Shown here: piece by piece, positions 13,514 through 27,320 of the stretch
Numbering within the stretch: the first letter of the stretch is position 1
Layout of the letters: every line of letters begins with the position of its first letter
IMG/VR virus record: IMGVR_UViG_3300012202_000039
Span: 1 to 64,000 of that record
Length of the DNA: 64,000 bases
Reading direction: 5' to 3' (one strand)
Origin: a virus
Notes under the pieces: generated by a model
The model's input: only the letters and a program-made list of their open reading frames with translations
The model's database searches: none
What the model was told of the DNA's origin: nothing
Position numbers and translations under genes: made by a program

Positions 13514-15637
13514 ATGAAAACCAAGTCAATTTATAATAAGCCAGAAGTTGATTCCTTATTAAATTTTATGGACAAGGTAGAAGATAATTCTAATACTCCT
13601 AAAAATCAAATAACCTCGTATACTAACCGTGATATAAGAAAGACCATACAACGGGCTATTAATTCTCATGCTCCAATAGCTACAAATCTTAAGATAGATG
13701 ATAAAGATTTCAAACAAGCAGATAATTTCTATAATTTTACTACTATGAAGAAATATGCTCTGACCGACCCACCTTTCGCGATGCAGATGCATATGGTTAT
13801 TCAGGCTTTAGGTGAGTGGAACCCCCTTAAGTCTGACACTAAGTGGTTAAATACTAAATTACAGGCTGATACCCCTTTAGATGAATATCGCGATCACATA
13901 TGTTTATTAAAACAAGGTATATGTCCGAAGACTAAAGTAACCAAATCTGAATTAATTAAACAAAAGATACTTAACCCTTATAGCCAACTAATTGCGTGCT
14001 GGGGTCAGCGCAGCGGCAAGAGCTTAACTATCGCGCAAATTCTAGCATACATGGCTCATGGCCATCTAAAATTACAAAATCCTTCAGAAGTATTTGGCGT
14101 AGCTACGCATGCCTCCCTATTATCTTATTCTTTAGTATCTCTAACTTTTAAACAAGCATTAGAGAACCTTTATCATCCGTTTTATCAAATCGTAGGTGCA
14201 TCAGATTGGTTTCAGAATTATTTCCAAATGTTGGATGAGTACAGCCGTAAACAATCCGTTGAATTATATAAATTCAATGATACATTCTTGTCTTTTCGCT
14301 CACATAATATGATTGTAGCTGTATCTGGGCCAGACAAAAGAATATTACGCGGACGTGCCCGCCCCTTCTTTGCTATAGATGAGGCAGATTGGTTATTTTC
14401 ATCCAATAAGTCTGCTTCAGTAAAATATAACGTTGAGGAGATTTATGCGGCTTTACGGAATAGTATGATGGATATAGTAAGAGGGTGGAAAAATCTTCTA
14501 AATGATGGGTATAATTCTATAGTACCTCCGATGGCGTGTAATATATCTTCACCTTCGTCTAAGTTTGCTTTTATGATACCTATGATTGAGAAATCTAAAC
14601 ATTCTAGGAATATCTTTACTAGTCATCTATCTACACCAGAAGTTAATCCGAAGTTTACCTACGAAGACCTATATGAAGAAATTGTACCTCTACAAGGTGA
14701 AGAAGCATTTTTAAGAGATTTTATGGCGGTGCCGCCGTTATCATCATCTCCTTTTATTAGTGACATACAGAACTTTAAACTAGTAGTTAATCCCAACCGA
14801 GTTAATGGAGTTACGATTAACCAGAAGCAGATGATAGGTAAATCAGATAAATTATTCTCTGTTGGTGGATTCCAAATTGTTGCCGTAGATAATAAAGTAC
14901 CTAAGTTAATGTCGATAGACGCGGGTGAAGTTGACAATAGTTTCGCTTTTACAATCTCTCACAATGAAAAAGTAGATGGTAAATTTAAGCCTATATTTGA
15001 CGTAATGGGGGAAATTATCCCTTCTAAAGAAGCACCAATAAATTTTACGCTAGTAACTGAGCATATATTAATGCCGTTAATTAAGAAGTTTAATGTCAAA
15101 TTTTGCGTATGTGATAGATGGAATAGCATAAAGTTACTCTCTGATTTAGCCCAAGACTGTGATATAGATACCGAAGTATATAGCGTTAAGTATAGAGATT
15201 TCGTATCTTTCCGTGAAGGTATTTATAACGGTAAGTTAGAGCTACCTCGTCCAGAGTTAAAACCTAAGAAAATTTTAACATCTGGCGACGAGGGTTACCC
15301 GTACGGCTTTAAACAATACCCGATATCGCATTTTATCTTCCAATGTCTTACCGTACAAGATCAAGCGGGTAAAGCGGTAACTAAGGGTAAAAATGTTACT
15401 GATGATCTCTTCCGTGCCGCAGTTTTAGCCCATTCTTTTCTCGTTGATGTAGAATACCAAGAGTTATTCGAGGGCACCTCAGCTAATAAAGGTAGTCCCG
15501 GTTTAGCTATTATGGGTAGTTTATCAGGTTTCGGCAGTTATAATCCAGGACAATCTTCAAATATGGGGGTAGTGGGTACTTTATCAGGTACAGGACAATC
15601 TATGGGAACATCTTCCCGTGTTTTTGCACGTAAATAA
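13514..15637 (+). CDS. terL: Terminase large subunit
   Basis: Walker A WGQRSGKS, LRG, Walker B FAIDE, SSP motif, RNase H-like nuclease SIDAG...DRWNS...DDLFRA. Confidence 0.9.
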   Translation: MKTKSIYNKPEVDSLLNFMDKVEDNSNTPKNQITSYTNRDIRKTIQRAINSHAPIATNLKIDDKDFKQADNFYNFTTMKKYALTDPPFAMQMHMVIQALGEWNPLKSDTKWLNTKLQADTPLDEYRDHICLLKQGICPKTKVTKSELIKQKILNPYSQLIACWGQRSGKSLTIAQILAYMAHGHLKLQNPSEVFGVATHASLLSYSLVSLTFKQALENLYHPFYQIVGASDWFQNYFQMLDEYSRKQSVELYKFNDTFLSFRSHNMIVAVSGPDKRILRGRARPFFAIDEADWLFSSNKSASVKYNVEEIYAALRNSMMDIVRGWKNLLNDGYNSIVPPMACNISSPSSKFAFMIPMIEKSKHSRNIFTSHLSTPEVNPKFTYEDLYEEIVPLQGEEAFLRDFMAVPPLSSSPFISDIQNFKLVVNPNRVNGVTINQKQMIGKSDKLFSVGGFQIVAVDNKVPKLMSIDAGEVDNSFAFTISHNEKVDGKFKPIFDVMGEIIPSKEAPINFTLVTEHILMPLIKKFNVKFCVCDRWNSIKLLSDLAQDCDIDTEVYSVKYRDFVSFREGIYNGKLELPRPELKPKKILTSGDEGYPYGFKQYPISHFIFQCLTVQDQAGKAVTKGKNVTDDLFRAAVLAHSFLVDVEYQELFEGTSANKGSPGLAIMGSLSGFGSYNPGQSSNMGVVGTLSGTGQSMGTSSRVFARK

Positions 15638-17019: not shown

Positions 17020-20000
17020 ATGCATATTTTGATTAAAGGATTTGGTCGAACTGGTGTAGTTTCTTCTAAAGTCGGCGGTAGGTCTTTTACAGAAACCGCG
17101 ACGGATGGAGGAAATCTTAGTGGATTTGGTATCGGAGGTAATTACGGTTTAGGTGCATCAGCTATTATTCCTAACACCGATCTAGAGTTACTAGACGGTC
17201 TAATCTCGTTTAGAAGTGACCAAATTGTTCGGAAAGTATACCGGGATATCTATTGGCACGACGTTATTGCTGGTGGTGCCGTCGATATTCAATCTACTAT
17301 CCCTTTCTCAGATTTTAGCCTATCTGGTATCAACGATCCTAAAGTTCTCGAAGTCTACATGCAAGCTATTGAAAATATGTCTATCTTGACGTTGTTACCT
17401 TCAGTTAGGATCGACCAACTCGTCTTAGGCACATTTATCGGGGTAACTAACTTCGATAGAGAGATTAATAATTATACTTCATTAACTCCGATTAACATAG
17501 ATATGACGCAAATAACCCCGGCTCCATTGTTTGATATGGATCCCATTATTGATTTGCGTTTTGCTAAGGATACTCAGCGGTACCTGAGGAATACTAAAGA
17601 TCATAGGTACCAGCGTATCCGGAATAAAATGCCCCAATGGATGATCGATGGTATTTCCAAAGGACGCGTATTATTAGATTCAGCTAACGTCATCTACTTA
17701 CCTCGGAAGACTTTATCCACAAATAATCTCGGTACTTCCTATTTCCGTAGGATTTTACCGATACATATTATGGAAAAAGCTATATTACGAGGAAGCATAC
17801 AACAGGCATATAGAAGGCAACGAGCTATCGGATGGGCGCGAGTCGGCGACGATGAATGGGAGCCTACAAACAACGAACTAAGTTCTATTTTGAGTATGCT
17901 ACAATGTTTGACGGGTGACACACTTATATCTATAGAAAATAAACTTACACGTTTAGATAAGATTTGTTCGCGTAAAGGTATGCAAAAAGATGAAGGTAAG
18001 AAAATAAATCTAAAGATAAAAGGCAAAGATGGTAAAATAGTTACTGCTAATAAGTGGTGGTATCGCGGTTACGATTATGTTAATAACATTAAGACTGAGC
18101 ACGGATACTCATTAAAAGCCACAGATACTCATCGTATACTGGTACTTAATGACAAATTAAAATTAATCTGGAAATATACTAAAGATTTAAAGATCGGTGA
18201 CAAACTTTGTTTAGATAGTAACATATCTAAAAGTGAAAATAATACCCAATTAAAGGTAGATATTAATCTACCTACATTAGTTACTCGCCCGCAAAGTGGC
18301 GGTATGACAGCTAAAGCTATAGATATTCCTAAAGAAATGTACCCAAAATTAGCTTATTTATTAGGATTATTAGTTAGTGAGGGGCATGTCCATAAGCATT
18401 ATGTAGCTATAACTAATAGTGCAGAAATTTTGCTCGAAGAAGCTATAGATTGTTTTAAAGAAATCTTCTATCTTAATCCTAGAATTGAGTGGATGGATAG
18501 AATAGGACAAGAAATAGTTATAAATGGTGTGCATACGGGTACTACTAGAAGTCTATCTGGTGTAGTACGTGCCCATAGCATATATGCCTCTCATATATTA
18601 CAGAAGCTAGGCGTTAGCTCCAGTGAAACTCTTAGATTAAATGGTGATAAATATCCAGCAAATTATAAAGAAATTCCTTGGTCTATTCTTCAAGCTGATG
18701 ATGAATCTAAATATGCCTTTATTGCAGCATATTTAGATGGTGATGGCGGTCTCGAAGTACATGATACCAATTCGGGTAAAAATATACTTCTTATTATACG
18801 TAGTTTTAGTAAGAAATTACTAAAACAAATGCAGATAATGTTATTAGATCTAGGTTATCATTCTCATATATCCTATGATCTTAATAGGTTAACTATAAAT
18901 CGAAATAATGCGGCTAAATTATATGCTAAAATATCAAAGTATCTCAAGCACCCAGATAGAATTATTAAAGATTGTTCTGGTCAGGCTAACGATATGGGTG
19001 AAGGTATTCCCGTAGCCCCTATTCGGAAGTTATTTCAATCTAGATTCATCCGCTCAGAATATAGAAAACACTTTTTCTTAAATGATGAAGGTAAAGAAAT
19101 CAGTATTAAACATTATGGAGTATTTTTAGCTAAAACTTTAAGTCATAATACTCTTCGTACTGAAGCATATAATAGAGATGAATATAAAAATATATTAGAT
19201 GCTTTAAAAATTATTAGTAAGAAATTTTATAATACAGTTGTAGATTTACTAGGCGTTGGATATAGGTATGAATCTATTACCTCTATTACTAAACTAGCTA
19301 AAAAGCAACATTTATATGATTTAACTATTGATAAAAAATCAGAGTCGGCTTTTGTCGCTAATGGTATAGTTGTTCACAATTCTGCTGATATGGACCCTAT
19401 CGGCGCTTTTCTCGTAACTAGAAATGGTATTGATTATCAAGATATACGAGAAGGTGGACAGTTTTGGTCCTTCAATGATGTCTTCGATACCTTTTCTAAC
19501 GCTAAAATGCGCGGGCTTGGAATTTCAGAGGGATTATTATCCCAAGAAAATACGTATTCAACACTCGAAGCATCCATAAGTATGTTCATGGATCAAATAA
19601 AAAGTGATCGAGAACAGACAACGAGAGAAATGTTCACTAACCGTATATTCGCAAATATCGCTATTACTAACGATTTTAAACGTAAAAATCCACGGATGGA
19701 AGTACCTAACGACGCTGAACAATACCCAACTTTAAGTTCTATGACGACTAAAGGTAGTCCTAGGGGAGTACACCGCACTGAAGATGGCCGTTACTTCGCT
19801 GTTTGTAGTTCAGCTAGTGCTAGATCGCAACTAAGTGAATATCAGATACCCAGTGTTCATTGGCACAAACAGCTCGAACCTAAAGGTGATCGGGATTACG
19901 TTGATTTACTATCTACTCTAGAAGAAAAAGGTGTACCTGTTCCTCTGCGGGTGTACGCCGCATCCGTGGGTGTAGATTTAGATGCTATTGTTCAAGGTAT

Positions 20001-20367
20001 GGATAACGACAAGAAACTCCGTAAAGAATTTGCTAAGTTTAAACAAGAAACTGGTGGTGGCGGTGATGAAGAAGAACAAGGTGGTGGACAAGGTCAGCAA
20101 TTCGCTTCGGATCTGAGTAAAAGTGTGGGTAGTAGCGTAGCTCGTGTTGGTTTAGGTAATAGAACAACGGATGATCCCCGCTACAAGATTAGAGGTTCTA
20201 ATAATAAGGGTACACCGCAGGAACTTTCACGTAAAGGTGAAAAACTAGCTAACGAACGTATGCACAAGTTAGTAGCTAATATCCTAGCCGAGCGGCAACG
20301 TCAGGAAATCGTCAAGGAAAATAGCAAATTTAACAAACTTAAGGGTTTAAGGAAACCAAATAAATAG
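17020..20367 (+). CDS. Portal protein, intein-containing (623 aa after splicing)
   Basis: Lies between terminase and prohead protease; portal-like GTSYFRRILP, LGISEGLLS and PSVHWHKQL blocks; internal intein. Confidence 0.75.
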   Translation: MHILIKGFGRTGVVSSKVGGRSFTETATDGGNLSGFGIGGNYGLGASAIIPNTDLELLDGLISFRSDQIVRKVYRDIYWHDVIAGGAVDIQSTIPFSDFSLSGINDPKVLEVYMQAIENMSILTLLPSVRIDQLVLGTFIGVTNFDREINNYTSLTPINIDMTQITPAPLFDMDPIIDLRFAKDTQRYLRNTKDHRYQRIRNKMPQWMIDGISKGRVLLDSANVIYLPRKTLSTNNLGTSYFRRILPIHIMEKAILRGSIQQAYRRQRAIGWARVGDDEWEPTNNELSSILSMLQCLTGDTLISIENKLTRLDKICSRKGMQKDEGKKINLKIKGKDGKIVTANKWWYRGYDYVNNIKTEHGYSLKATDTHRILVLNDKLKLIWKYTKDLKIGDKLCLDSNISKSENNTQLKVDINLPTLVTRPQSGGMTAKAIDIPKEMYPKLAYLLGLLVSEGHVHKHYVAITNSAEILLEEAIDCFKEIFYLNPRIEWMDRIGQEIVINGVHTGTTRSLSGVVRAHSIYASHILQKLGVSSSETLRLNGDKYPANYKEIPWSILQADDESKYAFIAAYLDGDGGLEVHDTNSGKNILLIIRSFSKKLLKQMQIMLLDLGYHSHISYDLNRLTINRNNAAKLYAKISKYLKHPDRIIKDCSGQANDMGEGIPVAPIRKLFQSRFIRSEYRKHFFLNDEGKEISIKHYGVFLAKTLSHNTLRTEAYNRDEYKNILDALKIISKKFYNTVVDLLGVGYRYESITSITKLAKKQHLYDLTIDKKSESAFVANGIVVHNSADMDPIGAFLVTRNGIDYQDIREGGQFWSFNDVFDTFSNAKMRGLGISEGLLSQENTYSTLEASISMFMDQIKSDREQTTREMFTNRIFANIAITNDFKRKNPRMEVPNDAEQYPTLSSMTTKGSPRGVHRTEDGRYFAVCSSASARSQLSEYQIPSVHWHKQLEPKGDRDYVDLLSTLEEKGVPVPLRVYAASVGVDLDAIVQGMDNDKKLRKEFAKFKQETGGGGDEEEQGGGQGQQFASDLSKSVGSSVARVGLGNRTTDDPRYKIRGSNNKGTPQELSRKGEKLANERMHKLVANILAERQRQEIVKENSKFNKLKGLRKPNK
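17905..19380 (+). mobile_element. Intein with LAGLIDADG homing endonuclease (492 aa)
   Basis: Q/CLTGDT block A, ATDTHR block B, LAYLLGLLVSEG and FIAAYLDGDG, LYDLT..FVANGIVVHN/S C-terminus. Confidence 0.95.
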
Positions 20368-23192: not shown

Positions 23193-23957
23193 ATGAATAA
23201 CCGTCCTTTTCATATCTATTCTGATTGTCTCGGCTCACTAAAACATGTAGAAGCCTTTGATTTACTAGATGAAAAACGTTCGGATAAGCTGGAGTTATTT
23301 AAGATTCAAGCTGCCGCTACGGATATGACTAAAGATATTAAAGAAACTATTGTAACTGCACCTAAGATTCTCCCCTTCGCTGCGGAGAAATACAATATTT
23401 CACCTAATATTAAAGATTATATTCTCTGTTGCGTAGTAGTTTTACCTTCAGATCTACCCAATAAAAATGGTATTGCTTTTTCTCATGCTGAGCTTAGTTC
23501 GTTCGTTGTGGATGCTGGATCACTATGTTATGATACGTTTAGATATCGTCCGATTCACCTCGAACATGCCAATAAGGACCCTAGCATAGCTAAAGGCATA
23601 ATTTTAAGCTCTAGTTACAAAAGAATGACAGGATTTAAAGGTAATTTGTGGAAAGTTATCTGTCTCTGTGCGGTTGACCGTAATCGCGATAAAGTTTTAG
23701 CCGATCGTGTTCTTAATGAAAAAGATACCGGTTTTTCCTTAGGTAGTCTATGTGCCGATTACCGTTGTTCTATTACTGGTAACCTTTTTAGTTCAGGACA
23801 AGCTGAGAATTATACTAAGTTAGGTAAACCTTCTTTCCAAGTTGTGGGGAATAATTTAGCTTTCTTAAATGCCATAGATTCCTTAATGTTTGAAGTTAGT
23901 GTAGTAGCTTCTGAGGCTTATTCTTCTGCTCGAACACCATATAAGATGACCTTCTAG
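23193..23957 (+). CDS. Prohead (capsid maturation) protease
   Basis: PNKNG..F, PIHLEH (His), KGII, FSLG (Ser), FEVSVV: herpes/HK97-type protease pattern. Confidence 0.8.
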   Translation: MNNRPFHIYSDCLGSLKHVEAFDLLDEKRSDKLELFKIQAAATDMTKDIKETIVTAPKILPFAAEKYNISPNIKDYILCCVVVLPSDLPNKNGIAFSHAELSSFVVDAGSLCYDTFRYRPIHLEHANKDPSIAKGIILSSSYKRMTGFKGNLWKVICLCAVDRNRDKVLADRVLNEKDTGFSLGSLCADYRCSITGNLFSSGQAENYTKLGKPSFQVVGNNLAFLNAIDSLMFEVSVVASEAYSSARTPYKMTF

Positions 23958-24996: not shown

Positions 24997-25004
24997 CTGT
25001 AAAT
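24997..25004 (+). promoter_or_regulatory. Candidate phage promoter element CTGTAAAT
   Basis: Same element at 38655 and 62493, with variants at 3356, 3410, 11558 and 15651, all intergenic. Confidence 0.45.
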
Positions 25005-25063: not shown

Positions 25064-25873
25064 ATGTCAGTTAATATTGTTCAAAATAAGTTTCTTGAAT
25101 ATATCGTCAGCGAATGTCACGATCGTGGTAATTTAATCGAGATGAATATTCATCTCGTAAATAATGTACGTTTAGTTGGACATATTATTGGTTACGATGA
25201 CGATTCCATCATTCTTAATGGTCGTGGTAAAACGCAGATTGTCTTCAAGAAGGCTATTTTGACTATTTGTCCTGGCGACAAGGGTGACGTAAACATGCTT
25301 AAGGCATGTTTACCTGATACGCTTAGTGAAGCTGCGCTTAATAGGTTAGTAGGTAATACTAGTACATATAGGCACTACACTTCTTCAAATTTAGATAAAA
25401 CTAGCCACCAACCTTATTACGGTGAGCCCCAGACAGATTTAAATCCAGTAAAAGAACCTATTGATATAATCAAACAAGTTGAAGGTAAGGTCGGCGAGGG
25501 TAGTTGTAGTGGGATCGGCGGTGAGGTTAATAACCAGCTAATTCCTAGTTATGATGCTATCCTGAACTACCATAAGAATAAAGGTAATTCTGTTTCAGAA
25601 GAAGATAAGGTCAGTGATAATGCCGAGGAATCTCGGGCTCCTACTGAGAGAGAAGAATTTAATAAGTATCTAAAAGAGAAGTATTCTAGTTCAGATGATA
25701 AGGGACGTAAAGAACTTTTAGAACAATTAAAGCTAAAAAATAACATTGGCGCATGTTTTAGTGATCCTGATGATGATATGTATTATCCTAGTAATATGAG
25801 TAATCTTCTTTCAGAAGAAGAGAAGATTACTCAAGAAATGCACGATAATGGTACTGACAGTGTTGCAGTTTAA
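25064..25873 (+). CDS. hfq: Hfq-like Sm protein with ~200-aa acidic C-terminal extension
   Basis: VQNKFL...IHLVNNVRLVGHIIGYDDDSIIL...TQIVFKKAILTICP aligns with Hfq LQDPFL...[23 protein letters not shown]...SQMVYKHAISTVVP. Confidence 0.85.
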   Translation: MSVNIVQNKFLEYIVSECHDRGNLIEMNIHLVNNVRLVGHIIGYDDDSIILNGRGKTQIVFKKAILTICPGDKGDVNMLKACLPDTLSEAALNRLVGNTSTYRHYTSSNLDKTSHQPYYGEPQTDLNPVKEPIDIIKQVEGKVGEGSCSGIGGEVNNQLIPSYDAILNYHKNKGNSVSEEDKVSDNAEESRAPTEREEFNKYLKEKYSSSDDKGRKELLEQLKLKNNIGACFSDPDDDMYYPSNMSNLLSEEEKITQEMHDNGTDSVAV

Positions 25874-25899
25874 TTAAGTTCAAAGAGGAAATAATTAAG

Positions 25900-27027
25900 A
25901 TGTCTACGATTGATTTCCCCGAGTTAGATATTGAAACCTATATCTCTGCTGACCCTATCGACGTAGTACCAGATAATAGCAAGGGTTCACAGAAGATTGC
26001 TATTCTAGGCTTAGGTCAAGCCGGCGGACGTATAGCAGAAGCTTTCCAAGACATTGGGTATAATAAAACTATTTATGTTAATACTACCGCACAAGATATT
26101 AATAATATTGTCTATAAATGTATTATTGGTATTACTGGTCGACCAGGCGGTGCTGGTAAGAATATGGCTATTGCTAGGGAAGCCTTTAATCAATGTGAAT
26201 CAACTATTACTAACTTGATGACTAAAGTGTACGGTAAAGTTGATCATATTCTAGTATGTGCTGCGTTAGGCGGAGGTACTGGCTGCGGTTCCGTGGTTTC
26301 TGCTTTAGAATTAGCTAAGAAGTATATGCGTTATATCGGACACGCCGATGCAGATAAGCGAGTTGGGGCGGTTATTACTATCCCAACTAATGGTGAACTT
26401 AACCCGCAAGTATTAAGTAATACTCTAGAAACCGCCGAAGAATTATCTAGGTTAGCAGATAATCAAGAAATCAGCCCTTTGATTATGGTGGATAACGAGA
26501 AGCTTAAGCTTCTCTATCAGACTAAAATTCCTATTGCGAAGTACCACACAACTATTAATAATCTTATTGTCCAGCTTATTGATAGTTTTAATACTATTTC
26601 TAACCAAGCTAGTGAATACATCACCTTCGACGCCACAGATTATGAAACCATCCTACAATGTGGCGGTCATATGATTTCCGGGGTAACTCGGGTAGATAAT
26701 TGGTTAGATAAAGATCTAGTAGTTAAAGCATTTCGAGATAATTTGATGGGTGCATTATTATCCTCTGATTTCGACCTAACTACGGCTACTCACGGCGGTG
26801 TAGTAGTAATGGTTGACGAGGAGTTGATTAATACTGATGTAAATCTTCAAGCTTTTATTGAAGCTGGATTTGATTCGATTAATCTCCTATGTCCTAAGGC
26901 CACTATTCATCGTGGTTTATACAAATGTAAGCCGACTAAGTTGAGTAAAGTTCGCGTATATACCACACTAGCTGGATTAAAGACACCTACTCGTAAATAT
27001 GATAAGTTATCTGCTTTATTGAACTAA
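25900..27027 (+). CDS. Tubulin/FtsZ-superfamily GTPase (PhuZ/TubZ/CetZ-like)
   Basis: GLGQAGGRIA, VNT, GAGKN, signature GGGTGCG, P..E, DNEKL, T7-loop FDATD. Confidence 0.92.
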   Translation: MSTIDFPELDIETYISADPIDVVPDNSKGSQKIAILGLGQAGGRIAEAFQDIGYNKTIYVNTTAQDINNIVYKCIIGITGRPGGAGKNMAIAREAFNQCESTITNLMTKVYGKVDHILVCAALGGGTGCGSVVSALELAKKYMRYIGHADADKRVGAVITIPTNGELNPQVLSNTLETAEELSRLADNQEISPLIMVDNEKLKLLYQTKIPIAKYHTTINNLIVQLIDSFNTISNQASEYITFDATDYETILQCGGHMISGVTRVDNWLDKDLVVKAFRDNLMGALLSSDFDLTTATHGGVVVMVDEELINTDVNLQAFIEAGFDSINLLCPKATIHRGLYKCKPTKLSKVRVYTTLAGLKTPTRKYDKLSALLN

Positions 27028-27040
27028 AGGAGTAACACAA

Positions 27041-27253
27041 ATGAACGAACCTAAGAAAATTTTACATATTACAGTTGGTTCTGATGATTGGTATTCTACT
27101 AATGTAGAATTGGAGCAAGTTTATAATTTATTTAAAAATGGTATATTAAATGCGCATAATTGTGTTACACAAAGAGGTATTGAAGTTAAGGCTATAGATA
27201 ATATTGAAGATATAGATGAAATTGTCATCAGGCGTAAGATGAAATTACCTTAA
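27041..27253 (+). CDS. Stand-alone homologue of a portal subdomain (70 aa)
   Basis: ILHITVGSDDWYSTNVEL...VTQRGIEVKAI aligns to spliced portal IGWARVGDDEWEPTNNEL...VTRNGIDYQDI. Confidence 0.65.
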   Translation: MNEPKKILHITVGSDDWYSTNVELEQVYNLFKNGILNAHNCVTQRGIEVKAIDNIEDIDEIVIRRKMKLP

Positions 27254-27285
27254 ATAATACACCAAAACTAGCCAATTCTATATGG

Positions 27286-27320
27286 AATAGCCCTAAGGTA
27301 TCACCTTAGGGCTATTTTTT
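27286..27320 (+). terminator. Intrinsic terminator closing the hfq-tubulin unit
   Basis: AATAGCCCTAAGGT-ATC-ACCTTAGGGCTATT plus T run. Confidence 0.9.

Follow-up and report, generated by a model that had tools for sequence, protein, structure and literature searches.

The window analysed here comprises 64,000 nucleotides of an IMG/VR viral contig of 80 kb, and since this record is estimated to be 35% complete, the phage it belongs to is taken to be a jumbo phage. The window contains a head module (terminase, portal, prohead protease) and, within it, three genes for an Hfq-like, a tubulin-like and a 70-aa protein, the latter referred to in the following as P0001, which look like one transcription unit (25064-27318) ended by a terminator. 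The coordinates of the smallest gene are exact: an ORF of 70 codons running on the + strand from the ATG at 27041 to the stop at 27253. The relevant features are the following.

13514..15637, + strand: large terminase subunit (phrog_17415, 1e-139), a candidate clip-binding partner given for context only
17020..20367, + strand: portal gene, 1115 aa, interrupted by an intein and representing the parent fold of the clip unit; exteins match phrog_16240
17842..17904, + strand: N-extein half of the portal clip unit (residues 275-295), with first strand, loop and clip helix
17905..19380, + strand: intein (residues 296-787; Intein_splicing and LAGLIDADG_3), in the clip domain just past the clip helix
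19381..19452, + strand: C-extein half of the portal clip unit (residues 788-811), with loop and second strand
23193-23957: prohead protease, head module
25064..25873, + strand: gene for an Hfq-domain protein of 269 aa (Pfam Hfq, 3.1e-11), first of the apparent unit
25900..27027, + strand: gene for a tubulin/TubZ-like GTPase (Pfam Tubulin, 2.8e-10)
27026..27032, + strand: Shine-Dalgarno sequence AAAGGAG, 8 nt before the ATG at 27041, read directly from the sequence
27041..27253, + strand: P0001, a 70-aa stand-alone portal clip-domain protein (homology, AF2, Foldseek, VIA, HMM)
27284..27318, + strand: hairpin resembling an intrinsic terminator (16-bp stem with 6 GC pairs, followed by a T run), just 3' of P0001

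The Shine-Dalgarno sequence overlaps the stop codon of the tubulin-like gene, from which P0001 is separated by a gap of 13 nt, and the two genes are probably co-transcribed. P0001 adjoins a tubulin-like gene, and TubR and TubY, partners of TubZ with a helix-turn-helix DNA-binding fold, are likewise encoded beside tubZ; however, no HTH family was matched in Pfam, and both sequence and fold indicate a portal clip. The Pfam search of P0001 gave no hit of any kind, hence the protein is also devoid of an Acb2/Tad1 domain. The motif CTGTAAAT was considered as a recurring promoter element and rejected, as its three occurrences (window positions 24997, 38655 and 62493) compare with 4.6 expected in shuffles and it is therefore not enriched.

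Homology between P0001 and the portal clip

Both exteins of the portal match the portal family phrog_16240 (3e-64 and 4e-51). When the portal was spliced in silico by removing the intein, BLASTP aligned residues 12-52 of P0001 with residues 275-317 of the spliced protein (13/43 identical, 25.4 bits, E 1e-4 in this one comparison), the alignment crossing the splice junction at 295/296. This single match is suggestive rather than conclusive, because the pair was chosen from the whole window and an all-against-all correction would remove its significance. Profile comparisons provide independent evidence that does hold. A leave-one-out HMM, built from the units of the other small relatives with P0001 excluded, scores P0001 at 50.6 bits and the spliced portal at 48.6 bits (residues 274-318), the next best among 671 six-frame ORFs of the window reaching 8.0 bits. 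On the unspliced portal, the same model matches in two halves, residues 275-297 and 788-811, which flank the intein. An HMM of all small units finds every one of the 40-odd related portals at 35-75 bits, and an hhalign comparison between the alignment of the small proteins (A3) and that of 14 intein-free portals (A2) gives a probability of 99.2% and an E value of 3.1e-19 over 60 columns. Finally, two small relatives from cultured phages, BcepSauron gp210 and Lu11 gp133 (P0003/P0004), match phrog_16240 directly (1.5e-14 and 6.4e-9) at profile positions 291-346.

Judged from these sequence comparisons, the similarity between P0001 and the portal is one of real homology that is limited to the clip segment. 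The preliminary description had proposed that P0001 is a free-standing copy of the portal segment across the intein site, a proposal on which BLASTP, the leave-one-out HMM and the highly significant profile-profile alignment now agree, and its alignment on both sides of the splice junction is reproduced by BLASTP against the spliced portal. P0001 is a real gene that encodes the clip knob alone: the full wing-stem-clip-stem-crown architecture of about 600 aa is absent from its 70-aa product, which consists of the clip unit only, and a protein devoid of stem, wing and crown cannot be a portal.

The overlap of P0001 with the intein site is without special meaning. At the DNA level, P0001 and the portal exteins show a codon-aligned identity of 50%, with 15/36 bases matching around the junction, and no DNA-level similarity of P0001 to the exteins or the homing site was found. 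It follows that P0001 did not arise by recent duplication and is not a plausible target or decoy of the intein endonuclease, and its interpretation as a relic of, or decoy for, a homing site is ruled out. Related portal ORFs with intein-sized insertions were also found (1090-2036 aa; L037-L041, L044, L045, L047 and L048), the insertions being identified by size and not by intein domains. Their clip unit is mostly intact, so that any insertion sits elsewhere, and inteins may occur at several sites within the portal family.

Which part of the portal is represented by P0001 can be judged from predicted structures. For P0023, which among the intein-free portals is the closest (53% identity in the N-extein), the AF2 model reaches a mean pLDDT of only 59, yet its core still allows Foldseek to recognise portals, including T4 gp20, G20c and lambda, with a probability of 1.0. 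Its homologous segment (257-316) is predicted to contain the end of a helix, a strand (266-270), a helix (279-292) and another strand (300-304), and is flanked by long helices at 241-261 and 321-336. In T4 gp20 the order is stem-clip-stem, the clip being formed by three strands and one helix and protruding from the capsid (PMC4493910). The order in the model is the same, and given its position between two stem helices, the segment copied by P0001 is the clip domain.

The AF2 model of P0001 itself (pLDDT 64) displays a strand (7-12), a helix (21-33) and a second strand (47-52), followed by a low-confidence acidic/basic tail (53-70), and the beta-alpha-beta pattern is common to the models of P0001 and of the portal segment. 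Among 350,542 PDB chains searched with Foldseek, ranks 1-8 are all occupied by portal chains, and the best match has a probability of 0.96 and an rmsd of 2.5 A over 50 columns, its E value of only 0.2 being expected with only 50 residues compared. VIA-align places residues 1-56 of the model on one contiguous mid-chain segment of solved portals (Z 2.2-4.2), with portals in 17/18 of the rows shown; in the G20c portal the aligned range is 234-292, where the clip helix and adjacent loop comprise about residues 263-275 (10.1101/713933). The model of P0001 is hence found to superpose, strand-helix-strand, on solved clips, with moderate model confidence and scores. The preliminary description had regarded the copied segment as probably the exposed clip region, and the strand-helix-strand order between long stem helices, the portal-only top ranks of Foldseek and the likeness of the two predicted folds all speak in its favour. 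A sequence search with the relative P0005 recovered no solved portal, and the prediction of a complex of four P0001 copies gave a score of 0.12 and a mark of 0.42, which is counted neither for nor against self-association through the inter-subunit beta-sheet.

A rare family of free-standing clip units

P0001 belongs to a rare family of about 20 intact relatives, each with one or two clip units, in which a known domain is used as an independent protein. When searched with phmmer against 1.84 billion representatives, P0001 yielded 11 matches below E 1e-3, of which nine are true small relatives (E 8e-6 to 7e-4; 76-256 aa; one to two copies of a unit of ~50 residues) and two, P0006 and P0010, are repeat proteins and were rejected as false positives; a profile search added six further relatives. 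Matches of P0001 by tblastn in 50,697 phage genomes are only weak (E 0.2-8), some falling in portal genes (GR7B) and the best in small ORFs of BcepSauron/BcepSaruman and Lu11, and the relative P0008 gives significant tblastn matches in both portals and small ORFs, one from BCSR5 included. A homologue search with P0001 alone returned only P0001 itself, megablast of its region against phages found nothing, and no related loci were returned from IMG/VR for P0001, P0008, P0015 or the tubulin-like protein. Most of the relatives sit on contigs of 1-5 kb.

The core of the family reads h-H-h-x-h-G-x-x-x-W-x-P-T-x-x-E-L ... F, which in most members is followed by DPxG and TRxG, and the residues H, G, W, L and F are invariant in the family alignment (A1). 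P0001 carries this core in a protein without other portal domains and is divergent, with Ser where the family has Pro and the DPxG loop missing; its identity amounts to 41-42% with the nearest small unit and 30% with the clip of its own portal. Four architectures can be distinguished: a single unit of 70-86 aa (P0001, P0008 and P0016), tandem units in 111-256 aa (BcepSauron gp210 and five metagenomic proteins), an N-terminal phrog_11049 domain followed by one unit (Lu11 gp133 and relatives) and one unit followed by a C-terminal domain (P0012, P0017 and P0020). An Atlas search with the Lu11-type N-terminal domain led to unnamed viral clusters only. Two tandem-unit proteins on JGI contigs of about 1.6 kb, P0007 and P0015, have N-terminal extensions that resemble export signals, one with a twin-arginine-like motif (RRSFLVG) and the other with a hydrophobic segment that resembles a signal sequence and terminates in a Cys. 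Internal Met codons are present in both directly 5' of the first unit, and the extensions could be either gene-calling artefacts or truly exported forms. Free-standing clip proteins were not found described in the open-access papers and preprints searched. Three points appear to be specific to this window, namely the coincidence with an intein located in the portal's own clip, the context of a tubulin/Hfq operon and the highly diverged form of the single-unit type.

Relatives from cultured jumbo phages provide genomic context on a larger scale. BcepSauron, Lu11 and BCSR5 each also encode a full-length portal ORF of 652-668 aa, which lies 30-170 kb from the small gene, and the neighbours of the latter are small hypothetical genes, tRNAs, an HNH endonuclease gene and a GroES gene, not structural genes. 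For instance, BcepSauron gp210 (L001:2875-3339, NC_049851) is a protein of 154 aa made of one and a half to two clip units and a helical tail, and the portal-sized ORF of 652 aa follows at a distance of about 31 kb on the downstream side, near 150.0 kb of the record; the label 'portal protein' that gp210 bears in RefSeq is misleading for a protein of this size. In Lu11, gp133 (in L003:601-3426, gp132-gp136) lies three genes from a Holliday-junction resolvase gene. A published function for gp210, Lu11 gp133 or the BCSR5 protein was not found in the literature searched.

The C-terminal domain shared by P0012, P0017 and P0020 is probably, rather than certainly, Acb2-like. Its sequences match nearly the whole 58-position profile of the Pfam family Acb2_Tad1_hairpin (E 0.034, 0.033 and 3.4e-4, respectively), all of them below the gathering score. 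The alignment of these three metagenomic proteins reveals an invariant Tyr-Lys pair with a spacing of 15 residues, embedded in the pattern YRxLSxEE...VKxL. Acb2 binds cGAMP through Y11 and K26, and the primers used for its mutagenesis translate to G-Y-R-D-L-S-Q-E and M-M-N-R-V-K-E-L (PMC10312549). A free-standing homologue of the domain, with 76 aa (L066:2989-3219), is encoded in the early region of the podophage MW202738, between HTH, exonuclease and RecT genes. A profile of the domain recovered neither Acb2 nor Tad1 from the PDB sequences, and NCBIfam returned nothing. If the assignment holds, at least one lineage combines clip units with an anti-CBASS sponge in a single protein.

The mini-clip family is selectively retained but patchy. 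An extra clip ORF within 10 kb of the portal was seen in 0/42 IMG/VR loci with related portals, and ten large related jumbo records, five of which are at least 90% complete, gave the portal match only; the mini-clip gene, being missing from these ten, is accessory. A tree of 77 clip units, based on only 55 columns, places the portal of the window phage in a well-supported portal clade (97) with P0001 outside it, among other small units in the free tree, and puts the small units of Lu11 and of BcepSauron/BCSR5 beside their own portals with modest support. In AU tests, a tree that joins P0001 to the clade of its own portal is not rejected (p 0.42), and the same holds for one in which all small units are united (p 0.52). 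With 55 columns, such a tree does not settle the origin, or the number of origins, of the small units.

Possible functions of a free clip

Three kinds of clip binder have been published, namely the terminase, the adaptor or neck protein, and immune sensors. The TIR defence SpbK uses its N-terminal domain to dock onto the clips of YonE, the portal of SPbeta, and YonE with a mutated clip helix escapes it. Avs4 senses the portal clip while also contacting stem and wing, and Avs11 senses portals as well (10.64898/2026.01.04.697583). With regard to assembly, the one beta-sheet that links the main chains of neighbouring subunits in the portal ring is made by the strands of the clip (T4 gp20, PMC4493910), and T4 reportedly employs host Hfq to plug the portal-neck complex transiently (PMC12929587). 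Given this plug, the presence of a phage-encoded Hfq-domain gene near the putative clip mimic is worth noting in its own right.

In the proposed mechanism, P0001 is an expressed, stand-alone paralogue of the beta-alpha-beta clip knob that lies between the portal stem helices and, being free, would act as a soluble mimic that occupies some protein normally bound to the portal clip. The likeliest target may be a host immune sensor that detects portal clips, in which case the free clip would be a competing ligand of the sensor that does not present the assembled or full-length portal, its trigger. That P0001 is a soluble clip mimic tying up a clip-binding partner, most likely a portal-sensing immune sensor, is the reading tentatively preferred here, albeit with somewhat less than an even chance of being right. 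It fits the sensing of portal clips by SpbK and Avs4, and it is favoured, though only indirectly, because the distribution is accessory and patchy, the branches are long, the fusions are varied (the Acb2-like one included) and the neighbourhoods in cultured phages are non-structural. Nevertheless, P0001 itself lies in the head module, probably co-transcribed with tubulin-like and Hfq-like genes, a setting which an assembly role fits at least equally well; Avs4 also contacts stem and wing, and a clip-only fragment would offer just part of that interface; and P0001 is divergent, with the S for P exchange and without the DPxG loop. The Acb2 argument, moreover, is tempered by Pfam matches below the gathering score and a PDB profile search that did not retrieve Acb2, and even a genuine fusion could mean that the clip unit is a mere oligomerisation module. 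No phage-encoded clip decoy against sensing by SpbK or Avs4 was found described in the open-access papers and preprints searched. A bolder version, in which jumbo phages repeatedly detach their own clip as a decoy that blinds SpbK-like TIR and Avs4/Avs11-like STAND systems, in some lineages fused to an Acb2-type cyclic-nucleotide sponge as a two-pronged counter-defence, is more doubtful; if true, it would define a new class of anti-defence proteins, derived from part of the very structural protein that acts as the trigger.

Assembly offers the principal competing explanation, which is less likely though it deserves serious consideration: P0001 may be a putative modulator of packaging or head completion that engages the large terminase or else the portal adaptor by its C-terminal arm, either timing or chaperoning their docking on the portal or sabotaging the packaging of a co-infecting phage. 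The gene is located between the prohead protease and late-looking genes, at 6.7 kb downstream of the portal, and shares its unit with an Hfq-like gene. This setting agrees with such a role, as do the successive docking of the terminase gp17 and then the neck protein gp13 on the T4 clip (PMC4493910; PMC9958956) and the insertion of the C-terminal arm of gp13 between two adjacent clip helices (PMC12929587), which tandem two-unit relatives could imitate as a pair of neighbouring clips. The Hfq plug of T4 makes an assembly-related operon with an Hfq-like gene conceivable, but it stems from a different phage lineage, in which Hfq contacts gp14 and not the clip. Furthermore, the gene is absent from ten related jumbo records, of which five have a completeness of at least 90%, and hence does not encode a core assembly factor, its counterparts in BcepSauron, Lu11 and BCSR5 lie far from the structural genes, and a soluble competitor of the phage's own portal would be costly unless regulated. 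A rather improbable further explanation is that P0001 caps the exposed edge of portal monomers, acting as a chaperone before ring formation or as a poison of the rings of a rival phage. The three-stranded sheet of the T4 clip is indeed assembled from two neighbouring subunits (PMC4493910) and the strand residues are the best conserved of the small family (H, G and W are invariant), yet the patchy distribution argues against such a role and an identity of only 30% with the portal's own clip gives no hint that an interface of paired strands has closely co-evolved.

It is quite improbable that no mimicry is involved at all, P0001 being instead a degenerating copy left behind by the movement of inteins or homing endonucleases at the portal gene, or the unit having been reused as an oligomerisation or scaffold domain. 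Such an origin would accord with a unit that spans the intein insertion point, with the HNH endonuclease gene near BcepSauron gp210 and with the fusion of clip units to unrelated domains. Against decay stand an intact ORF with ribosome-binding site and terminator, about 20 intact relatives with a common conserved core and the absence of DNA similarity to the portal exteins or the homing site, while single-unit members such as P0001 carry no further domain to scaffold.

The portal clip is a docking hub, used by the packaging motor and then by the neck, and according to recent work also a surface that is read by bacterial immunity. The existence of patchily distributed but conserved stand-alone clips, some of them with an Acb2-like fusion, suggests that phages use a piece of their own structure as a soluble mimic. 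If the partner of this mimic is an immune sensor, it would represent a new principle of counter-defence and provide a handle on portal-sensing defences in the hosts of uncultured jumbo phages; if it is the terminase or an adaptor, an unrecognised layer of control in head completion would be revealed. Since cultured phages (BcepSauron, Lu11 and BCSR5) carry relatives, the question of the partner is directly testable.

When compared with known systems, P0001 is closest to the portal clip itself (phrog_16240-type; T4 gp20 279-358, PDB 3JA7/6UZC; G20c, HFTV1 and Mu), which has the strand-helix-strand order predicted for P0001, is connected to it by significant profile homology and is the equivalent mid-chain segment returned by the fold search from solved portals. 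Unlike portals, P0001 has 70 instead of about 620 aa, is separately encoded and lacks the stem helices, the wing and the crown, and its identity with the clip of its own phage amounts to only about 30%. The same clip unit occurs in free-standing form in gp210 of BcepSauron and BcepSaruman, Lu11 gp133 (196 aa) and BCSR5 QRE00113 (152 aa), whose phages, like the one described here, encode at another site of the genome a full-length portal that belongs to this family; in contrast to P0001, gp210 has one and a half to two units and a helical tail, Lu11 gp133 an extra N-terminal phrog_11049 domain, and all these genes lie outside the head module, whereas that of P0001 lies inside. With the Acb2 sponge (PaMx33 Acb2, T4 Vs.4) the likeness is confined to three relatives, in which the putative Acb2-like domain has its Tyr and Lys spaced as Y11 and K26 and matches Pfam below the curated cut-off, whereas P0001 itself is devoid of such a domain. 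Finally, the portal-sensing pairs SpbK-YonE and Avs4-portal demonstrate that the clip is a surface read by immunity, and as such exploitable by a decoy, with the difference that SpbK and Avs4 are sensors of the host and P0001 is a protein of the phage.
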